Source: a virus
Taxonomy: Duplodnaviria > Heunggongvirae > Uroviricota > Caudoviricetes
Strand: one strand, 5' to 3'
IMG/VR virus record: IMGVR_UViG_2687453449_000002
Length of the DNA stretch: 15,276 bases
The notes beneath the pieces were generated by a model. It ran no database searches and was not told where the DNA came from. It was given only the letters and a program-made list of their open reading frames with translations. The translations under genes were made by a program, and so were the position numbers. Below, piece by piece: positions 916 to 12,657 of this stretch; position 1 is the first letter of the stretch, and every line of letters starts with the position of its first letter.

Positions 916-1107
916 TTAAAGACCTGCCGGGATTTCGATATTATCCTGGTGAATAACTTTATCGACCGGGTAACAGTTACCGGGAATTTTCTGTTCGGTT
1001 GCTGCAGTCATACACTCCTGCATTGTCCTGTGAACACTGTCTGCAATATCAACTGGCTCTCCGGAAACAAGAAAAACTGTCAGAACAAGCGCAAATGCTG
1101 AATTCAT
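916..1107 (-). CDS. ydfD: Small membrane/lysis protein YdfD-like (63 aa)
   Basis: Internal start MNSAFALVLTVFLVSGEP... within the 81-aa track ORF gives a 63-aa protein with a hydrophobic N-terminus; its ATG overlaps the dicB stop in an ATGA arrangement (1104-1107), indicating translational coupling. Confidence 0.6.
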   Translation of the reverse strand: MNSAFALVLTVFLVSGEPVDIADSVHRTMQECMTAATEQKIPGNCYPVDKVIHQDNIEIPAGL

Positions 1108-1292
1108 TGTGTACATCCTTTTGGCATCAGACGTAAACGAGCCAGCATTGAAACAATGCATATTTTATTTAATAGCTCCCGTTCTTGTTTTCTCTTGTTA
1201 ATGGCATCTTCAGTAAATACAGGGTTACTGATAGTGACACCAATTTCAAAACAACCTTCAGACGTATTAACGTTTGGTAATAACGTTTTCAT
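1104..1292 (-). CDS. dicB: Cell division inhibitor DicB (62 aa)
   Basis: Internal start of the 97-aa track ORF gives MKTLLPNVNTSEGCFEIGVTISNPVFTEDAINKRKQERELLNKICIVSMLARLRLMPKGCTQ, recognised as DicB; GAGGA Shine-Dalgarno 7 nt upstream; lies downstream of DicF as in Qin. Confidence 0.9.
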   Translation of the reverse strand: MKTLLPNVNTSEGCFEIGVTISNPVFTEDAINKRKQERELLNKICIVSMLARLRLMPKGCTQ

Positions 1293-1461
1293 TATCGCGT
1301 CCTCAACAATGAATTTTGTGATGCAGTGCCTGGTGCCTCCAGGTGACGTTAACCAGTTAACAATTAACGCCGGATACAGAGAATCCACCCATAACACTGT
1401 TTTTGGTTTTAACTGTTCCGCGTGCGCTTAGCCGCATTCACCGCATCACAAAATTCACTTT

Positions 1462-1519
1462 AAAAACGGCGGCAGAGCAGTCACGGAGTAAAACTGATAC
1501 CGCCAAACGTCACCAGAAA
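1462..1519 (-). ncRNA. dicF: DicF small regulatory RNA (ftsZ-targeting), with its intrinsic terminator
   Basis: Minus-strand sequence tttctggtgacgtttggcggtatcagttttactccgtgactgctctgccgccgttttt matches the remembered DicF sRNA, including a GC-rich 3' hairpin plus T-run; located between the upstream ORFs and dicB. Confidence 0.85.
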
Positions 1520-1995: not shown

Positions 1996-2341
1996 GAACT
2001 TGCAGGACGTCATGATCGTAACTTCCATCCAAACCGCGACGGCAAATTGCTTCTCGTATTACCGGAAGCAGTTCGCTGGAAATCTCGGTGCATATTTCAC
2101 CTGATAATACGCCTGGCTCAAGTGAGAATATTGGTGAACTTACGGTCTTGGTCTCGACAGTTTCAGAGTCAGTGCCAACATTATAAAGCTCAACGAAAGC
2201 GGTCTTGATTTTCCGGGCCAGATCTTTTGCTGGCTCGCTTGCAATATCTTTCCCGATTTCTCGCAGCACAGAATGCAATGTATGAGCTGCTGTTTTCTGT
2301 ACATCAGACGGTAAATCTTTAAATTCCATCGTCAGCCTCAT
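1964..2341 (-). CDS. Hypothetical 125-aa protein of the dicB operon (ydfB/ydfC position)
   Basis: ORF MRLTMEFKDLPSDVQ... whose ATG overlaps the ydfA stop (ATGA at 2339-2343); co-directional with dicA, ydfA and dicB. Confidence 0.6.
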   Translation of the reverse strand: MRLTMEFKDLPSDVQKTAAHTLHSVLREIGKDIASEPAKDLARKIKTAFVELYNVGTDSETVETKTVSSPIFSLEPGVLSGEICTEISSELLPVIREAICRRGLDGSYDHDVLQVLRTMVTSLGI

Positions 2342-2493
2342 CAGTCAGTGTTTCTGGCTAACCAGCAACGCGCGCCAGATTCGGTTTTAAACGTTTTGCT
2401 TTTGGTATATGTCATCGCGGTGAACGTACCGTCCTGGTTGGGGAACACGCCACATACCAGAGATTCGCTGTTGCCAAGATCGATAGTATCCAT
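2341..2493 (-). CDS. ydfA: Small protein YdfA-like (50 aa)
   Basis: Internal start MDTIDLGNSESLVCGVFPNQDGTFTAMTYTKSKTFKTESGARCWLARNTD with GAGG 6 nt upstream; first gene after dicA on the same strand, as in Qin. Confidence 0.7.
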   Translation of the reverse strand: MDTIDLGNSESLVCGVFPNQDGTFTAMTYTKSKTFKTESGARCWLARNTD

Positions 2494-2605
2494 GCTGACC
2501 TCATTTCCCCTTAACGCCGGGGTAGCGGAACTGTTTGCTGAGAACACCGTGCGGTGTCTTGATGGAAAGTAATTTAGAATAACCTAACATGAGAGGCAAG
2601 TGTTT

Positions 2606-2627
2606 TTTGTTAGATTGATCTAACAAA
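2606..2627. promoter_or_regulatory. Operator-like palindrome in the dicB-operon promoter region (putative DicA site)
   Basis: Perfect inverted repeat tttgttagat-tg-atctaacaaa sharing the core GTTAGA-N4-TCTAAC with two sites in the dicA/dicC intergenic region; lies between the dicA stop and the ydfA start. Confidence 0.6.
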
Positions 2628-2661
2628 AAGGGTGGGCGCAACTAATCACTTGAAAAGAATG

Positions 2662-3069
2662 TTATTTTATTGATTTATTTTTACGCGCTTTAAGCATTTC
2701 TTCGAAGAGTTTGTTGAAGTTTTCTACTCTTGCGCGCATTTCAGACAGCAAGGCTTCCTGCTCGGAAGATGGAAGAGCATCGAATAATTCGATCAATTCT
2801 TTGTGGTTGGGAGTTAGCTCTGTTTCCACATGAAGTTCTTGTGCAGGCACTGGTGCCTTGTCTTCGTCACCAAACATTAGCCATGTAGGTGAGCACTTCA
2901 GAGCATCCGCTAAAGCAAACAATCGTTTTCCGACTGGCTGGGTTTCGTCTCTTTCCCATTGTGAAATTGTGACGTGAGCAACTCCAGCGAGGCGCGCAGC
3001 TTCTCGTTGTGTTAAGCGTAATTCTTTTCGTCGCGCCAGAACTCGCTGGCCTAGGGTTCTTGTATCCAT
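2662..3069 (-). CDS. dicA: HTH-XRE repressor DicA (cI-like), 135 aa
   Basis: N-terminal HTH (LRLTQREAARLAGVAHVTISQWERDETQP), the C-terminal segment MRARVENFNKLFEEMLKAR remembered from DicA, correct length, and divergent from a cro-like dicC. Confidence 0.85.
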   Translation of the reverse strand: MDTRTLGQRVLARRKELRLTQREAARLAGVAHVTISQWERDETQPVGKRLFALADALKCSPTWLMFGDEDKAPVPAQELHVETELTPNHKELIELFDALPSSEQEALLSEMRARVENFNKLFEEMLKARKNKSIK

Positions 3070-3149
3070 AGTTAGGTAATTCTAATTTTTCTTGACTTAG
3101 GTATCCCGCGCACAATAATGTTAGAAAAGTCTAACAAGAGGGGGCTTTG
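3070..3149. promoter_or_regulatory. dicA/dicC divergent promoter-operator region
   Basis: Two palindromes GTTAGG-taat-TCTAAT (3071-3086) and GTTAGA-aaag-TCTAAC (3120-3135); rightward promoter candidate TTGACT (3092-3097), 16-17 bp spacer, AATAAT/ATAATG (3114-3120), the second palindrome overlapping the -10/+1; GAGGGGG Shine-Dalgarno before dicC. Confidence 0.65.
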
Positions 3150-3377
3150 ATGCTTAAAGTTGACGCAATTACTTTTTTTGGCAGCAAAACAAAGCTTGCC
3201 AATGCCGCAGGAGTGAGACTGGCAAGTGTTGCTGCTTGGGGGATACTGGTTCCTGAAGGTCGCGCGATGCGTCTACAGGAGGCATCTGGCGGGGAGCTTC
3301 AGTATGATCCCAAAGTTTATGACGAATATCGTAAGACGAAGCGGGCGGGGCGGTTGAACAATGAAAATCACTCCTGA
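3150..3377 (+). CDS. dicC: Cro-like regulator DicC (75 aa from the ATG; the track ORF begins 3 nt earlier at TTG)
   Basis: MLKVDAITFFGSKTKLANAAGVRLASVAAWG...RLQEASGGELQYDPKVYDEYRKTKRAGRLNNENHS, recognised as DicC-like; divergent from dicA; Shine-Dalgarno 6 nt upstream of the ATG at 3150. Confidence 0.8.
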   Translation: MLKVDAITFFGSKTKLANAAGVRLASVAAWGILVPEGRAMRLQEASGGELQYDPKVYDEYRKTKRAGRLNNENHS

Positions 3378-5553: not shown

Positions 5554-6240
5554 ATGAACCTCATAAACACATTTATGACTGTTGCTGATTTCAAACGCCC
5601 CAAATTGGAGCTCCCAAACGGGGCAAAAAAACTATTACTGCACTCTTGCTGTGCTCCATGTTCCGGTGAAGTGATGGAGGCGCTTCAGGCCTCGGGAATC
5701 GACTACACCATCTTTTTCTACAACCCGAACATTCATCCTCAGAAAGAGTATTTAATTCGTAAGGATGAGAATATTCGCTTTGCTAAACAACACGGCGTGC
5801 CATTTATTGATGCTGATTACGACACAGACAACTGGTTTGAGCGAGCCAAAGGAATGGAATGGGAGCCTGAACGAGGGATCCGTTGTACCATGTGTTTTGA
5901 CATGCGTTTTGAGCGGACTGCGCTGTATGCCGCTGAAAATGGTTTCAGTGTGATCAGTAGCTCACTGGGCATTTCACGCTGGAAAAATATGCAGCAGGTT
6001 AACGACTGTGGACGGCGAGCCGTCGCGTATTATCCGGGCATGGTGTACTGGGATTATAACTGGCGAAAGCAGGGCGGCTCTTCCCGCATGATTGAAATCA
6101 GCAAGCGCGAACAATTCTATCAGCAGGAATATTGTGGCTGCGTGTATTCACTGCGCGATACCAATCTACACCGCAAATCTCAGGGACGCCCTCTAATCAA
6201 AATTGGTCAACTCCACTACGGTAAAGAAGGCCAGGAATGA
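5554..6240 (+). CDS. queH: QueH-family (DUF208) epoxyqueuosine reductase-like protein; start uncertain (GTG 5461, ATG 5554 or ATG 5575)
   Basis: Hallmark [13 protein letters not shown] near the N-terminus and EYCGCVYS near the C-terminus, consistent with the cysteine motifs of DUF208/QueH as remembered; about 220-260 aa; no clear Shine-Dalgarno at any candidate start. Confidence 0.65.
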
Positions 6241-6353: not shown

Positions 6354-6687
6354 ATCTTGTTGAAATTAGAGGAAATCTTGCAGCCATGATATGGCTTAAA
6401 ATAACGTTTGATTATTTTACCTGCTGTTTGTCCCTGGTTTAAAGTCGGTTGTCTGATTTGATTACGCGCAACTGACGCTTACGTATTGAAGTAACGAGCA
6501 CGAAGACACATATTTATCAGTGCCTGTATACGTCAAGAGCAGGAGATTTATGTGCTGGTTCTCAAATGCACGCTGGCTATTGTGGCTGTAATGGCAATTT
6601 ATTGTCTTGTTATTGTTCTTATGGATCACCTTTCTGATTGATTTCATATTGGAGAGGTAACGGTAGTTAAGTAGAATGGCTGCGGGT

Positions 6688-6852
6688 GCTTGAGGCTATC
6701 TGCCTCGGGCATGAACACCAACGGCAGATAGAGAAAAGCCCCAGTTAACATTACGCGTCCTGCAAGACGCTTAACATTAATCTGAGGCCAATTTCATGCT
6801 AGACACATGTAGGTTAGCCTCTTACGTGCCGAAAGGCAAGGAGAAGCAGGCT
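6688..6852 (+). promoter_or_regulatory. hok mRNA 5' leader with tac/ucb-like elements and an in-frame mok-like upstream start (6796)
   Basis: Sequence ggtgcttgaggctatctgcctc...ggcagatagagaaaagcccc...agcctcttac...gcaaggagaag resembles the conserved structured leader of hok-family mRNAs. Confidence 0.5.
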
Positions 6853-7008
6853 ATGAAGCAGCAAAAGGCGATGTTAATCGCCCTGATCGTCATCTGTTTA
6901 ACCGTCATAGTGACGGCACTGGTAACGAGGAAAGACCTCTGCGAGGTACGAATCCGAACCGGCCAGACGGAGGTCGCTGTCTTCACAGCTTACGAACCTG
7001 AGGAGTAA
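6853..7008 (+). CDS. hokD: Hok-family type I toxin (51 aa), HokD/RelF-like
   Basis: MKQQKAMLIALIVICLTVIVTALVTRKDLCEVRIRTGQTEVAVFTAYEPEE: single transmembrane helix and conserved Hok C-terminus; AAGGAGAAG Shine-Dalgarno upstream. Confidence 0.9.
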   Translation: MKQQKAMLIALIVICLTVIVTALVTRKDLCEVRIRTGQTEVAVFTAYEPEE

Positions 7009-7224: not shown

Positions 7225-7476
7225 ATGATGAACATCGAAGAACTGCGTAAAAATTTTTGTGAAGATGGCCTCTATGCTGTGTGCGTTGAAAATGGAAATC
7301 TTGTTAGTCATTACCGCATTATGTGTTTGCGAAAGAATGGGGCTGCGTTAATTAATTTTGTGGATGGTCGAGTGACAGACGGATTTATCTTGCGCGAAGG
7401 TGAGTTTGTCACTTCATTACAGGCACTGAAAGAGATCGGAATAAAAGCAGGCTTTTCAGCTTTTGCAGAAGAATAA
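7225..7476 (+). CDS. rem: Rem-like small prophage protein (83 aa)
   Basis: MMNIEELRKNFCEDGLYAVCVENGNLVSHYRIMCLRKNGAALINFVDG...; GGAAGGA Shine-Dalgarno; lies directly downstream of hok as rem does relative to hokD in Qin. Confidence 0.7.
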   Translation: MMNIEELRKNFCEDGLYAVCVENGNLVSHYRIMCLRKNGAALINFVDGRVTDGFILREGEFVTSLQALKEIGIKAGFSAFAEE

Positions 7477-8150: not shown

Positions 8151-8161
8151 GTGGAGTGGAT

Positions 8162-10540
8162 ATGGCAGCAGTAAAAATCTCAGGTGTGCTGAAAGATGGT
8201 GCGGGAAAACCAATACAGAACTGCACTATTCAACTGAAGGCAAAGCGTAACAGCACCACGGTACTGGTGAACACGGTAGCCTCTGAAAATCCGGATGAAG
8301 CCGGGCGTTACAGCATGGATGTCGAGTATGGCCAGTACAGCGTCACCCTGCTGGTTGAAGGTTTTCCGCCTTCACATGCCGGAACCATTACCGTCTATGA
8401 AGGTTCCAGACCTGGTACGCTGAATGATTTTCTCGGTGCCATGACGGAAGATGATGTCATGCCGGAGGCATTGCGTCGTTTTGAGGCAATGGTGGAAGAA
8501 GCAGCACGCAACGCTGAAGCCGCCTCTCAGAGCGCAGCGGCAGCAAAGAAATCAGAAACAGCAGCGGCATCATCGAAGAACGCGGCGAAAACCTCAGAAA
8601 CGCATGCAGCTAACAGCGCACAGGCGGCAGCGGCCTCGCAGACTGCATCGGCAAACTCCGCGACAGCAGCTAAAAAATCAGAAAACAACGCGAAAAATAG
8701 CGAGACAGCAGCAAAGACGAGCGAAACCAACGCAAAGTCCAGCCAGGCGGCAGCGAAAACAAGCGAAACGAATGCCAAAACCAGTGAAACTGCGGCGAAA
8801 AGCAGTCAGGCTGCAGCAGCCGAAAGCGAGAGTGCGGCAGCCGGTTCTGCGACTTCAGCAGCTGGATCAGCAACTGCTGCAGCTAACAGCCAGAAAGCAG
8901 CGAAGACGAGCGAAACTAACGCAAAGTCCAGCCAGACGGCAGCGAAGACCAGCGAAACGAATGCCAAAGCCAGCGAAACTGCGGCGAAAAACAGTCAGGA
9001 TGCAGCGGCCCAAAGCGAGAGTGCCGCAGCTGGTTCTGCAAGTGCGGCGGCTTCTTCTGCCACTGCATCAGCCAACAGTCAAAAAGCTGCAAAAACCAGT
9101 GAAACCAACGCAAAGGCGAGCGAGACTGCGGCGGCTAACTCGGCGAAAGCATCCGCTGCAAGCCAGACGGCTGCAAAAGCAAGTGAAGACGCAGCCAGAG
9201 AGTATGCAAGCCAGGCTGCGGAGCCGTATAAACAAGTTTTGCAGCCGCTTCCCGATGTGTGGATACCGTTTAACGATTCACTGGATATGCTTGCTGGCTT
9301 TTCGCCTGGTTATAAGCAAATAACTGTAGGTGATGATGTTATTAAAATGCCATCCGATAAGGTTGTTAGCTTCAAACGCGCATCAGGTGCAACATACATT
9401 AATAAATCAGGAGTATTAACCGTTGCTGAAGTTGACGAACCGCGATTTGAACGAGAAGGTTTGCTGATTGAAGGACAAAGAACCAACTATCATCTTAATT
9501 CACTTACGCCATCTAAGTGGGGAGCTACAACAAGTGTAACTATAACAGAAAGTGGTGTTGATGAGTTTGGCTTTACTTATGGGCGGTTTCAAATAAAGGA
9601 CGAAAAAATTGGGACAAATACGACAATGAATATCGCTGCGGTTTCAGGAGGAAGAGGTGTCGATGTTACTGGAACTGAAAAGTATGTTACAACATCATGT
9701 CGTGTAAAAAGCGATAGTGCTAATATACAATGTCGTATAAGATTTGAAAGATATGACGGGTCCGCATATTTTTATCTGGCAGATGCATATCTTAATATAA
9801 CAGATATGTCCATTAGGAAAACGGGAGGAGGGGCTGCAAGAATAACCGCCCGAGCGGAGAAAGAATCTAATGGATGGATTTATTTCGAGGTTACATATCA
9901 ATCTGAAGCTATTGATAATATGGTTGGCTCTCAGATCCAAATTGCTCCACCTGTTTCACCTGGAACTTATTTGGGCGGGGAATATTTGGATGTTACGACA
10001 CCACAATTTGAAGGCGGCTCATGCGCATCATCTTTTATCATTTCCGATACAGTTGCATCAACGCGAGCAAGCGATATTGTTACATTGCCTTGTAAAAATA
10101 ACATGGCCAGCAAACCTTTAACCTGCATGGTTGAAGTGAATAAAAATTGGTCTATAGCACCAAATTCCGCGCCTAGAATTTATGATATAACAGGATTTAA
10201 AACAAAAGACGACGCTTTTGTTTTTGCATTCAGAAATACAGCAGGTAGTGTAGGAACTCCATATGTTCAATTTGGTAATCCAATATCATTTCCACCTGGA
10301 AATTACCCAAGAAAGATTATCGCTGTATATAGAATAAAAAGCGATGGCAAGTTTCAGGCTGGCTGCAATGGGGTTTTATCAACACCAGCATCAACAACGT
10401 GGAAGAGTGTTAGTGGTGCTACAGGTATAAGGATTGGAGGCCAGACTACAGCCGGCTTACGTCATTTATTTGGTTATATCAGGAATTTTAGAATATGGCA
10501 TAAAGAATTAACCGATGCGCAAATGGGAGAGATAATATAA
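8162..10540 (+). CDS. Side tail fibre protein (Stf), mosaic: lambda-Stf-like N-terminal domain, Ala/Ser/Thr repeat shaft, divergent AT-rich C-terminal receptor-binding region (792 aa from ATG 8162)
   Basis: N-terminus MAAVKISGVLKDGAGKPIQNCTIQLKAKRNSTTVLVNTVASENPDEAGRYSMDVEYGQYSV... matches the remembered lambda Stf N-terminus; GGAG Shine-Dalgarno before ATG 8162 (the track ORF starts at GTG 8156); C-terminal end ...FGYIRNFRIWHKELTDAQMGEII resembles a LamG/ConA-like lectin domain. Confidence 0.9.
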   Translation: MAAVKISGVLKDGAGKPIQNCTIQLKAKRNSTTVLVNTVASENPDEAGRYSMDVEYGQYSVTLLVEGFPPSHAGTITVYEGSRPGTLNDFLGAMTEDDVMPEALRRFEAMVEEAARNAEAASQSAAAAKKSETAAASSKNAAKTSETHAANSAQAAAASQTASANSATAAKKSENNAKNSETAAKTSETNAKSSQAAAKTSETNAKTSETAAKSSQAAAAESESAAAGSATSAAGSATAAANSQKAAKTSETNAKSSQTAAKTSETNAKASETAAKNSQDAAAQSESAAAGSASAAASSATASANSQKAAKTSETNAKASETAAANSAKASAASQTAAKASEDAAREYASQAAEPYKQVLQPLPDVWIPFNDSLDMLAGFSPGYKQITVGDDVIKMPSDKVVSFKRASGATYINKSGVLTVAEVDEPRFEREGLLIEGQRTNYHLNSLTPSKWGATTSVTITESGVDEFGFTYGRFQIKDEKIGTNTTMNIAAVSGGRGVDVTGTEKYVTTSCRVKSDSANIQCRIRFERYDGSAYFYLADAYLNITDMSIRKTGGGAARITARAEKESNGWIYFEVTYQSEAIDNMVGSQIQIAPPVSPGTYLGGEYLDVTTPQFEGGSCASSFIISDTVASTRASDIVTLPCKNNMASKPLTCMVEVNKNWSIAPNSAPRIYDITGFKTKDDAFVFAFRNTAGSVGTPYVQFGNPISFPPGNYPRKIIAVYRIKSDGKFQAGCNGVLSTPASTTWKSVSGATGIRIGGQTTAGLRHLFGYIRNFRIWHKELTDAQMGEII
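8700..9200 (+). repeat. About 2.5 imperfect tandem copies of a ~189-bp (63-codon) unit within the stf shaft region
   Basis: Repeat starts near 8707, 8897 and 9083; encodes AAKTSETNAKSSQ...AAAGSA...ANSQK units; also creates spurious long ORFs in other frames. Confidence 0.8.
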
Positions 10541-10821
10541 TGCGAGATTTAATTATCAAATTCACAGACAAGGCCGACTTTTCGGCCTTTATGAAGAGTG
10601 CTGGCTATTATGATGACGAGTCGATGCAGGATGATATTCTTATTGACGTGATAGGTAACGTGTACAAAGAAACCGGAGAACTTACTGAAGATGGCGAGCC
10701 GGTATGTGTTAAGGAAGACGGATATTTTGTAAACGTGCGCATCATTAATGATGCAAAAAAATCGTCAATATTCGATAAATACGCGGTTGTTGTTGAGCAT
10801 CAACTTCGTGGCTGGATGTGA
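10540..10821 (+). CDS. Hypothetical acidic 93-aa protein downstream of stf (possible tail fibre accessory protein)
   Basis: ATG overlaps the stf stop (TAATG); AT-rich like the stf 3' region, suggesting co-acquisition; no family recognised. Confidence 0.5.
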   Translation: MRDLIIKFTDKADFSAFMKSAGYYDDESMQDDILIDVIGNVYKETGELTEDGEPVCVKEDGYFVNVRIINDAKKSSIFDKYAVVVEHQLRGWM

Positions 10822-10830
10822 GGCAGGAAA

Positions 10831-11535
10831 ATGGCTACATCGACAGTAATTCCAGGAGATATCACCAAGCTAAAGGGGGATGTCAGTAAAGCTAAGGAAG
10901 ATATTTCATCAATTAGCAGAAAAGTATCAACGCTTCAGACTGAGATGACCAGTGCAAAGCAGGATATCAGCTCCAGATACACAAAAACTGAAGTTGATAA
11001 TAAGCTGAAAAACAAAGTGGAAGTGAACGATCTGGAAAGTGGTCGTTATGGCGGAGATTTTTATCCACTGACAGGTCGTGAAGCGTTTTATTTATGGAAT
11101 TTGGCCACGACTACAGCGGCGGCAAACCTTTATCTTAATCCTGACCCTGCAATTTCGTCTGTGCTGCGGTCAACATCGTCTATCCGCTATAAACATTCAG
11201 TAGAGACAATAGATTCAGAGCACGCCGATCTCATTTTCAGGATGCGCCCTGTGTGGTACAGGTCGCAATGCGAAAATGACAGGCGTGACTGGGGATTCTA
11301 CGGATTGATTGCCGAGGAAGTAGGAGAAATTGCTCCTCAGTTTGTACACTGGCGACCAGCTAACGAAGATGATGCTCCTGAAGCTATTTCCAGCAATGGC
11401 CTTGTTGCCGAAGGTGTAATGTACGAACGTCTGGTTGTTCCACTGATTCACCATATCCAGAAACTGACTGAAAGAGTTGATGAACTTGAGTCAGAATTAA
11501 AGTTGTTATTAACTTCCCGAAGCGATATTAGATAA
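10831..11535 (+). CDS. 234-aa protein with a C-terminal peptidase-S74-like intramolecular chaperone domain and an N-terminal coiled-coil-like segment
   Basis: C-terminal half ...SSIRYKHSVETIDSEHADLIFRMRPVWY...GFYGLIAEEVGEIAPQFV...LVAEGVMYERLVVPLIHHIQKLTERVDELESELK fits the remembered S74 pattern (Ser ... Lys dyad, GxIAQEV-like motif, terminal helix); GAGG Shine-Dalgarno 7 nt upstream. Confidence 0.6.
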   Translation: MATSTVIPGDITKLKGDVSKAKEDISSISRKVSTLQTEMTSAKQDISSRYTKTEVDNKLKNKVEVNDLESGRYGGDFYPLTGREAFYLWNLATTTAAANLYLNPDPAISSVLRSTSSIRYKHSVETIDSEHADLIFRMRPVWYRSQCENDRRDWGFYGLIAEEVGEIAPQFVHWRPANEDDAPEAISSNGLVAEGVMYERLVVPLIHHIQKLTERVDELESELKLLLTSRSDIR

Positions 11536-11545
11536 AGGAGGAGTA

Positions 11546-11839
11546 ATGGATATAACACCTTTTCTTCATGCGCTTTGTGCTGTGGCTGCGCAGACACTGG
11601 TTGGTCTTTTTACCGGAAACTGGGCTTATGGGGCGATAGCTGGTTGTACGTTCTTCATTGCGCGTGAACACACCCAGGCAGAATATCGCTGGATTGAAAT
11701 GTTCGGGCATGGCAAGCGGATTAACATGCCGTGGTGGGGCGGTTTTGATCCGCGTGTTTGGGATGTGGCAAGCCTGATGGATTTTGCTGTGCCGGTGGTG
11801 GCGTGTCTGCTGATCTGGCTGTTGGTTAATCGTGGGTGA
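11546..11839 (+). CDS. Hypothetical 97-aa hydrophobic protein, probably membrane-associated
   Basis: Strong AAGGAGG Shine-Dalgarno immediately upstream; two hydrophobic stretches (ALCAVAAQTLVGLF and FAVPVVACLLIWLLV). Confidence 0.6.
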   Translation: MDITPFLHALCAVAAQTLVGLFTGNWAYGAIAGCTFFIAREHTQAEYRWIEMFGHGKRINMPWWGGFDPRVWDVASLMDFAVPVVACLLIWLLVNRG

Positions 11840-11849
11840 AAAAAGGTGA

Positions 11850-11969
11850 GCTGTATATGCAACGGAGGAAGAAACCCCGTTGCTGGAAGCCAGGAAAAAG
11901 TATCGGGTGTTGCTGAACCGTGTTGATACGTCAACTGCACAGGATATTGAATGGCCAGCACTGCCGTAG
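11850..11969 (+). pseudogene. tfa: 3' remnant (last ~39 codons) of a tail fibre assembly gene (tfa)
   Basis: Frame encodes [39 protein letters not shown]-stop, matching the conserved C-terminus of Tfa/Mu U-type assembly proteins; no start codon or N-terminal region; sits right before the pin 3' end. Confidence 0.7.
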
Positions 11970-12066
11970 GGTAAAACATATAAATTCTATAATTAGATGT
12001 ATCTTTCCATTTACGGCAAGGAAGGGGGCTTGGAAGACGTAAAGCATCTCACACCGAGATTATTTT

Positions 12067-12657
12067 TTATATGTCAGGTGTCTGAAGTTTTGCTTTGGCT
12101 CTTAAAATGGTTTGCCGCGAGGTTTTGAATTCCCGGGCAATGGCACTTATACTTACACCTGACTTAATCCGTTCGAATACCACCTGTTTCTGTTCTTCAT
12201 TTAACACAGGTGGTCGACCAAAACGTTTCCCTGCGCCCCGGGCTCTTACTATCCCGGAATGAGTGCGTTCAAGTAAAAGGTCTCGTTCAAATTCAGCGAC
12301 TGCTGAAATTACTTGCATCATCATTTTTCCTGTTGGACTGGTCAGGTCAATGCCCCCCAATGCTAAGCAATGCACTCTGATACCTGTTTCGGTCAGTTGT
12401 TCCACTGTTTTCCTGATATCCATTGCATTACAACCAAGGCGATCCAATTTTGTCACAATCAATTGATCACCACATTTCAGGCGAGCAAGCAACCGGTTAA
12501 AACCAGGACGCTCACTGGTTGCTGCTGAGCCGCTAATGTGTTCTTCGATTATTTGCTGAGGTTTGATTTTAAAACCTGCACTTTCGATTTCCCGGCGTTG
12601 ATTTTCGGTGGTCTGATCCAGCGTTGATATCCGACAGTAAGCAAAAATTCGAGACAT
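12067..12657 (-). CDS. pinQ: Serine recombinase, Pin-family DNA invertase (196 aa)
   Basis: [20 protein letters not shown]... with the catalytic Ser in YCRISTLDQ, a resolvase/invertase catalytic core and a C-terminal HTH ([17 protein letters not shown]); convergent with stf/tfa, as in Qin and Rac. Confidence 0.9.

Follow-up and report, generated by a model that had tools for sequence, protein, structure and literature searches.

The question raised by this locus is which DNA sites its DicA-type repressor reads, how many of them there are, and which promoters they would control. The window referred to throughout is the whole stretch of DNA that was analysed (15,276 bp). An earlier reading of its sequence, here called the original prediction, listed three palindromes sharing GTTAG(A/G)-N4-TCTAA(C/T), two of them between the divergent genes dicA and dicC and one ahead of the dicB operon, and proposed that DicA represses both dicC and the dicB operon.

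Gene content and the DicA repressor

The gene identities given in the original prediction for dicA, dicC and the dicB operon hold, with NCBIfam and Rfam matches above the cut-offs and matches in Pfam. The genes are listed in Table 1 together with the regulatory sites described below. The NCBIfam cut-offs are 101 for NF007257, the match to which spans residues 1-134 of the 135-aa DicA, and 130 for NF007282. On the minus strand to the left of dicA are a ydfA-type gene, a 125-aa ORF, the DicF RNA gene, dicB and a DUF1482 gene. To the right of dicC are YdaT-like, replication-type and DUF977 genes, QueH, hok/sok and a Rem homologue. These genes mark the locus as a prophage immunity region of the Qin (DicA/DicC) type. 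The 1.1-kb core has a 100 % identical match in an E. coli chromosome, where the element, with an integrase, lies beside rspAB, the position of Qin. At least 80 % of the 1.1-kb core was found in 564 of 5,426 complete E. coli genomes (approximately 10 %), and many E. coli genomes contain several prophages of the DicA type, at up to 8 places per genome.

Table 1. Predicted operators, promoters and genes of the dicA/dicC locus. Offsets are counted from the dicA start or stop codon, with the K-12 region set in the same orientation as the window.
Feature	Position	Strand	Sequence or match	Offset, window	Offset, K-12
Ob1 (predicted promoter-proximal dicB-operon operator)	2573-2588	.	GTTAGGTTATTCTAAA on minus strand; K-12 counterpart GTTAGTCATGGCTAAT	+74	+72
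Ob2 (predicted distal dicB-operon operator)	2604-2629	.	perfect 12-bp arms; core GTTAGATTGATCTAAC at 2609-2624	+38	+37
Oa (predicted operator)	3071-3086	.	GTTAGGTAATTCTAAT; adjoins dicA start codon; counterpart of K-12 Oa	-17	-17
Oc (predicted main operator)	3118-3137	.	aTGTTAGAAAAGTCTAACAAg; core 3120-3135; counterpart of K-12 Oc	-66	-67
dicC promoter	3092-3119	+	-35 TTGACT (3092-3097), 16-nt spacer, -10 AATAAT (3114-3119)		
Predicted dicB-operon promoter (dicBp equivalent)	2571-2599	-	TTGCCT (2599-2594), 17 nt, TAAATT (2576-2571)		
dicA (135-aa repressor)	2662-3069	-	NCBIfam NF007257 'transcriptional repressor DicA', 224.7 bits		
dicC (75-aa Cro-like regulator, divergent from dicA)	3150-3377	+	NCBIfam NF007282, 165.8 bits; Pfam P22_Cro		
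ydfA-like, first gene of leftward operon	2341-2493	-	DUF1391, Pfam PF07151, 94 bits		
DicF small RNA gene	1467-1518	-	Rfam RF00039, 72.5 bits (gathering score 48)		
dicB (cell-division inhibitor)	1104-1292	-	Pfam PF05358, 133.8 bits, residues 36-97 of ORF 1104-1397		
rem homologue, probable antirepressor	7225-7476	+	78/83 residues identical to RefSeq-annotated Rem		

DicA matches Pfam HTH_3 and has an N-terminal helix-turn-helix (HTH) of the 434/P22 type. Its N-terminal domain aligns without gaps with that of P22 c2 (PDB 1adr, 2r1j) over residues 1-68 (E = 1e-18, 45 % identity), with conservation of Gln21, Val33, Ser36, Gln37 and Trp38. The DNA-binding domain of P22 c2 has solved operator complexes. 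The homology ends at or before residue 71. For DicA, Pfam yields HTH families only, with no Peptidase_S24 or LexA-type cleavage domain, and the C-terminal S24 autocleavage domain with its Ala-Gly site is absent from the 135-aa protein.

Palindromes and promoters in the gaps flanking dicA

All three palindromes of the original prediction are present where it placed them. The cores at 2609-2624 (GTTAGATTGATCTAAC) and 3120-3135 (GTTAGAAAAGTCTAAC) and the palindrome at 3071-3086 (GTTAGGTAATTCTAAT) were read directly from the window, and a scan of both strands with the exact pattern found these three sites and no others in the 15,276 bp. They account for 5 strand-matches, compared with 0.01 expected, and none of the 200 dinucleotide-preserving shuffles that formed the null model equalled 5. 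However, three is not the total. Once mismatches were allowed, a fourth site that had been overlooked was found at 2573-2588, 36 bp from the 2609 site and 89 % identical to the 3071 site over 18 nt. Using GTTAGR-N4-YCTAAC with at most 1 mismatch, the window contains exactly 4 sites (0.07 expected), all within the two regulatory gaps that flank dicA, and no further site of the DicA type near rem, dicF or elsewhere. The repressor gene thus has a pair of sites on either side.

The gaps are AT-rich, and short palindromes are common in such DNA. Several matches with 2 mismatches elsewhere in the window (including those at 5604 and 11992, with no promoter nearby) are at chance level. If the four sites were likewise chance matches in AT-rich intergenic DNA, devoid of function, the excess of 3 exact and 4 one-mismatch sites over expectation, their location exclusively at promoters flanking the repressor gene, and their retention in 76 of 77 related loci together with their co-variation with repressor type (see below) would all be coincidence. 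The shuffles and the conservation effectively refute a chance origin, to which we assign a negligible probability.

The sites are two-fold symmetric. The original prediction was right about the place of the palindrome preceding the dicB operon and underestimated its extent, as the arms are perfect over 12 bp (2604-2615 and 2618-2629, with a 2 bp spacer) and not 10 bp. Oa and Ob1 each deviate at the outer base (ATTAG and TTTAG, respectively). Of the consensus first proposed, the arms stand and the fixed T at position 11 does not; positions 6 and 11 are better written R and Y, because close relatives carry C at position 11. On the sites compared here, the best description of the operator is the 20-bp sequence TTGTTAGR-N4-YCTAACAA.

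Two full sites only are found in the dicA-dicC gap, where a search for a middle operator (Om) found none. The CTTAGG at 3096-3101, which overlaps the dicC -35, is an orphan half-site lacking a partner. Hence, the three operators (Oc, Om and Oa) predicted for K-12 are not all present in the window. The three-operator layout need not be applied strictly, because in K-12 it was predicted from the sequence, and Om bound no DicA there either.

The dicC promoter was called by the promoter scan with 10/12 sigma-70 matches. The Oc core directly adjoins its -10, and the 20-mer shares the last 2 bp of that hexamer and includes the expected +1 (near 3126), which agrees with the position at the dicC -10/+1 originally proposed for this site. 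On the other side of dicA, the hexamers assigned to dicBp are weak (8/12 matches), fall under the promoter-scan threshold and were not called by the scan. The placement of this leftward promoter is a prediction, backed by the same position and spacing as the K-12 TTGACC-17-TAATCT. If it is correct, transcription would start near 2564, Ob1 occupies the spacer between the two hexamers and extends into the -10, and Ob2 is located 9 bp upstream of the -35. For dicA itself, a -10-like TAGAAT is located within Oa on the dicA strand, 9 nt ahead of the ATG, and the sequence between them contains no Shine-Dalgarno. This suggests that dicA, like lambda cI, has a weak promoter and a message that is leaderless or nearly so, with a predicted start at about 3069-3072.

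The location of Ob2, 33 nt past the dicA stop codon, raises the alternative that 2604-2629 acts in RNA, as a terminator or stabilizing hairpin at the end of the dicA transcript, and is not a DNA operator. It folds as an 11-bp hairpin, and the 111-nt region folds better than shuffled sequences (z = -3.4). However, the stem is A/U-rich (3 G-C pairs of 12) and is followed on the dicA strand by AAAAAACAC, which is not a U-tract, and the terminator scan made no call at this position. The equivalent in K-12-type loci, GTTAGCTATAGCATAC, is an imperfect palindrome for which a hairpin is impossible, and yet it retains one half-site and a 35-bp register with Ob1. The motif also recurs at three other places, none of which are transcript ends. 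We consider an RNA hairpin very improbable as the explanation of this palindrome. An intrinsic terminator at 2604-2629 was rejected on the composition of the stem, the missing U-tract and the loss of the hairpin in K-12-type loci. A DNA operator remains the preferred reading for Ob2.

Comparison with K-12 and related loci

DicC of the window is 86 % identical to K-12 DicC. DicA is 57 % identical to K-12 DicA, from which all of the experimental support is carried over. The offsets of the four sites in the two regions are given in Table 1, and the -35 and -10 hexamers are in equal positions in both. The K-12 Oc, TTGTTAGTCATAACTAACAA, is a 20-bp inverted repeat, TTGTTAG-N6-CTAACAA, that DicA binds in vivo, and an A-to-C change within CTAAC abolishes binding (PMC3441716). 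The dicC +1 was mapped by 5'RACE in K-12, where Oc overlaps the -10 and Oc-bound DicA stimulates transcription of dicA (PMC3441716). K-12 DicA represses dicC and dicBp (PMC3441716, PMC10448788), and Rem, the function of which has been demonstrated for K-12 only, derepresses dicBp 165-fold (PMC10448788). PMC3441716 and PMC10448788 credit the first description of the K-12 Oc, Om, Oa and dicBp operators to Bejar, Bouche and Bouche 1988, and the exact K-12 Om and Ob coordinates (Bejar et al. 1986, 1988) are known here through the papers that cite them. Given the same positions and the K-12 data, the window sites are therefore considered homologues of known or predicted K-12 operators.

Related loci were collected from one genome per species and from IMG/VR using window-type and K-12-type DicA proteins as queries (approximately 170 loci overall), and the four sites were located by position in each locus. 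Loci L018-L020 from the contig scan, which have no intact dicA ORF at the expected position, were excluded. The window type, defined as TQR at the start of helix 2 and VAHVTISQWE in helix 3, comprised 77 loci with 15 distinct DicA proteins, found in E. coli, E. albertii, E. ruysiae and IMG/VR contigs. Conservation of the palindromes in related dicA/dicC loci, which the original prediction called for, was found, with all four sites kept in 76 of the 77. Oc has no core mismatch in 77/77 of these loci and Oa is at -17 from the dicA ATG in 77/77, while the 8-base TTAG/CTAA core is free of mismatches in 76/77 for Ob1 and 73/77 for Ob2, though arm conservation alone is weaker evidence than these counts suggest because much of the intergenic DNA is conserved among close relatives. 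A phylogenetic footprint of the whole gap is of limited value for the same reason, most of the loci being close relatives. The informative part is the contrast between invariant arms and variable centres. There are 12 different central sequences for Oc and 19 for Ob2. Over the 44 distinct sequences of the sites, the information content is 1.4-1.8 bits at half-site positions 1-5 (GTTAG) and 0.45-0.6 bits at positions 6-8, as would be expected if the arms are contacted and the centre is not.

The Oc-Oa spacing in the window is 49 bp, as it is in 77/77 window-type loci. The Ob2-Ob1 spacing, 36 bp in the window, is 36 bp in 63 loci, 35 bp in 12 and 37 bp in 2. Both the 49-bp and the 35-37-bp spacings differ from those of classic adjacent cooperative operators, and they vary by 1-2 bp. 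Strict helical phasing, or a fixed spacing within each pair, was rejected on the Ob2-Ob1 range of 35-37 bp and on Oc-Oa spacings of 49, 50 or 51 bp between types.

The sequence of the sites changes with the type of DicA. The window type (77 loci; TQR, HVTISQWE) has R at position 6 in 77/88 half-sites. The K-12 type (81 loci; TQR, HVSVSQWE) has Y at position 6 in 66/66 and A at position 8 in 63/66, and its operator reads GTTAG-Y-Y-A / T-R-R-CTAAC. In a third type (8 loci), SQA at the start of helix 2 is combined with the window-type helix 3; position 6 is R in 16/16 half-sites, the arms are CTTAG and G is found at position 1 in 0/16. More distant DicA types have TTGAG-N6-CTCAA, GTTGAG-type or TAAC-TTTT-GTTA sequences in the same two places. 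That the layout is kept while the sequence follows the protein type provides good comparative evidence for the sites being operators of the repressor.

Position 1 is G where helix 2 starts with TQR, and C or another base where it starts with SQA, SQN or SQS. This co-variation, as opposed to a structure, suggests that Arg22 contacts the guanine at position 1. A more tentative proposal, to which we give less than even odds, is that the DicA family is divided into immunity-specificity classes that are 1-2 operator positions apart, each tracking a small change in the HTH. If so, the window and K-12 DicA proteins would be partly or fully heteroimmune despite their common TTGTTAG arms, and the DicA-type prophages of E. 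coli would be linked in a predictable network of cross-repression that acts on the expression of DicB and DicF.

The comparison also bears on whether the sites are mainly or only DicC sites, with DicA reading the perfect Oc and Ob2, and Oa and Ob1 either serving DicC or being relics. In the loci surveyed, Oa (77/77) and Ob1 (76/77) are conserved no less than the perfect sites and change in step with them in other DicA types, which argues against such a division. The deviating outer bases of Oa and Ob1 speak for it, as do two K-12 results. Cloned alone, K-12 Om and Oa showed no DicA binding in vivo, reported there as 'data not shown' (PMC3441716), and ChIP-seq of K-12 DicC gave peaks to either side of dicA and a less strict palindromic motif, TT(A/C/T)G...C(G/A/T)AA, i.e. 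TTNG/CNAA (PMC11430063). However, Ob1 alone overlaps the leftward -10, and K-12 DicA strongly represses that promoter. Furthermore, weak sites that are occupied only cooperatively are normal in lambdoid switches, lambda OR2 and OR3 being sites of this kind. Overall, we regard the restriction of DicA to the two perfect sites as unlikely, and prefer the reading in which all four are DicA operators, most probably shared by DicC. The role of Oa is the least secure, because the K-12 Oa alone bound no DicA in vivo.

The proposed switch and its relatives

We estimate a probability of roughly 85 % that the four palindromes serve as operators in a DicA/DicC switch of the Qin type resembling those of lambda and P22, with DicA binding expected from homology. 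For the window variant, we infer DicA binding, the starts of transcription and what the individual sites do from the K-12 system and the arrangement of the locus. A DicA dimer would read the 20-bp site via its P22 c2-like HTH, and the Cro-like DicC would very probably read the same 20-bp sites. DicA at Oc would block PdicC, keeping dicC and the replication genes behind it off, and would aid its own promoter, as in K-12. Oa lies over the presumed dicA promoter, and DicC, or excess DicA, bound there would lower dicA; Oa can be viewed as the analogue of OR3/PRM because its occupancy would turn dicA down. With DicA at both Ob1 and Ob2, ydfA, DicF and dicB would stay silent. Repression would be lifted via the Rem antirepressor or a flip to the DicC state, and not via RecA cleavage because DicA has no cleavage domain.

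Repression of dicC and the dicB operon by DicA, as originally proposed, is thus consistent with K-12 homology, and the proposal was incomplete in three respects. It omitted Ob1, which is embedded in the predicted promoter and is the site best placed to repress the dicB operon. It also left out DicC, which most probably uses the same sites, and the lack of DicA binding by the K-12 Oa when alone.

The finding is sound but ordinary, in that the sites are counterparts of ones already described in K-12. K-12 had already provided the system, the logic by which it works and the TTGTTAG/CTAACAA arms, and the accepted picture of the DicA/DicC switch is unchanged. New in this analysis are a complete map of the four operators of a common DicA allele, the comparative support for two sites at dicBp, and the type-specific inner and outer positions. 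In the literature searched, the exact operator sequences of the window allele had no match, and only the K-12 Oc sequence was found. To our knowledge, the K-12 dicBp sites have never been footprinted. Reg-Seq recovered a DicA site at dicC and lists the one at dicB, even for K-12, as low-evidence with no known binding location (PMC7567609); the comparison presented here places DicA/DicC sites at dicBp. DicB and DicF govern cell division, phage resistance and filamentation, and with the operator bases known, clean derepression experiments can be designed. From the type-specific operator differences comes a small recognition code, open to testing, for a HTH resembling that of P22 c2.

Compared with K-12 Qin, the gene order is the same (dicC, divergent dicA, then ydfA, dicF and dicB), as are the outer half-site TTGTTAG / CTAACAA, the positions of the sites relative to dicA (within 1-2 bp), the short non-cleavable repressor accompanied by a Rem homologue and, in the 100 % identical E. 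coli record, the chromosomal neighbourhood with rspAB beside the integrase. The inner part of the operator differs systematically, GTTAG-R-N-W in the window versus GTTAG-Y-Y-A in the K-12 type. The Oc-Oa spacing is 49 bp in the window and 50 bp in K-12, K-12 has the predicted middle site Om where the window has an orphan CTTAGG half-site only, and the distal dicBp site is a perfect palindrome in the window and degenerate in K-12. Unlike K-12 Qin, the window prophage retains replication genes to the right of dicC.

The Gifsy-type GfoR/GfhR systems also have a short non-cleavable repressor that is inactivated by a small antirepressor. This likeness is one of the mode of induction only. Rem was discovered via its similarity to Gifsy and Fels antirepressors (PMC10448788).

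With P22, the locus shares the P22_Cro match of DicC and the arrangement of divergent repressor and cro promoters, the leftward early promoter having a second set of operators. However, P22 c2 is a protein of 216 aa with a RecA-cleavable C-terminal domain, and DicA, at 135 aa, has no such domain. The operators of P22 are 18 bp with ATTTAAG-type arms and occur as tandem triplets, whereas the sites in the window are 20 bp and paired, 49 and 36 bp apart.

The lambda CI/Cro switch is alike in outline. A single repressor silences both the rightward cro-type promoter and the leftward early promoter and stimulates its own weak promoter, and the Cro-like protein turns off the repressor gene via the same sites. 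The operators have no sequence relationship, there are two sites per promoter rather than three, and induction is by the antirepressor Rem in the DicA system and by RecA-stimulated self-cleavage in lambda. Bistability has been reported for the DicA/DicC pair of K-12 (PMC10448788).

The dicB operon and its 5' UTR

The leftward dicB operon of the window (ydfA, DicF and dicB on the minus strand) contains one intact dicB (1104-1397), and no Rha gene is present in the window. The otherwise identical locus in the E. coli AMSCJX02 record (L002) differs: at 5931-7098 of L002, dicB is present as an N-terminal fragment and as a full copy, separated by the gene for a Rha-family regulator. The 5' UTR of this operon includes the inverted repeat ACACCG-NN-CGGTGT, and further 3' in the transcript is CCCCGGCGTTAAGGGG, which adjoins the ydfA ribosome-binding site. 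Almost every DicA type compared retains both elements 3' of the leftward promoter, including types whose operators differ. The repeat and CCCCGGCGTTAAGGGG could be a nut-like or an RNA-processing element.

Extent of the prophage and other genes

Beyond about 7200, the window and the AMSCJX02 record diverge. The region 8156-12657 includes a tail-fibre gene (phage_tail_N), a gene for a protein with a Peptidase_S74 chaperone domain and a Pin-like serine invertase gene. The prophage is thus reduced to a short remnant, with no head and tail genes in the window. Other genes include a hok/sok pair and a homologue of the Rem antirepressor, which was not matched by any Pfam or NCBIfam profile.

Features located in the window
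Feature	Position	Strand	Remarks
ACACCG-NN-CGGTGT inverted repeat	2544-2557 (within 2539-2560)	minus (transcript)	ydfA operon 5' UTR
Orphan operator half-site CTTAGG	3096-3101		overlaps the dicC promoter -35
hok/sok type I toxin-antitoxin pair	6684-6858 and 6796-7008	both plus	Rfam sok, 115 bits; Pfam HOK_GEF, 81.6 bits
Rem antirepressor homologue	7225-7476	plus	78/83 residues identical to a RefSeq Rem
Pin-like serine invertase	12067-12657	minus	
MFS transporter	from 13993 on		beyond the Pin-like invertase

DicA types and the dicA-dicC region

Many E. coli genomes include several DicA-like places, with up to 8 per genome. IMG/VR genome 2671180710 is the source of two of the loci compared, L049 and L095, one with a DicA of the window type (GTTAG operator arms) and one of the CTTAG type, as heteroimmunity between the two types would lead one to expect. 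Three loci on genome contigs (L009, L012 and L013) are clearly enterobacterial but carry the MAG labels Collinsella, Bacillota and Veillonella parvula, which are probably due to binning contamination.

In CTTAG-type loci, a third site, CGTAGAGAAACCTAAG, is found at -41 from the dicA start codon, the same place as the orphan CTTAGG of the window, and the partner half is absent in the window type. Relative to the Qin locus of E. coli K-12, the dicA-dicC locus of the window is a mosaic, as DicA is only 57 % identical to its K-12 counterpart whereas the neighbouring DicC is 86 % identical, with a recombination breakpoint that is probably in or near the operator region.
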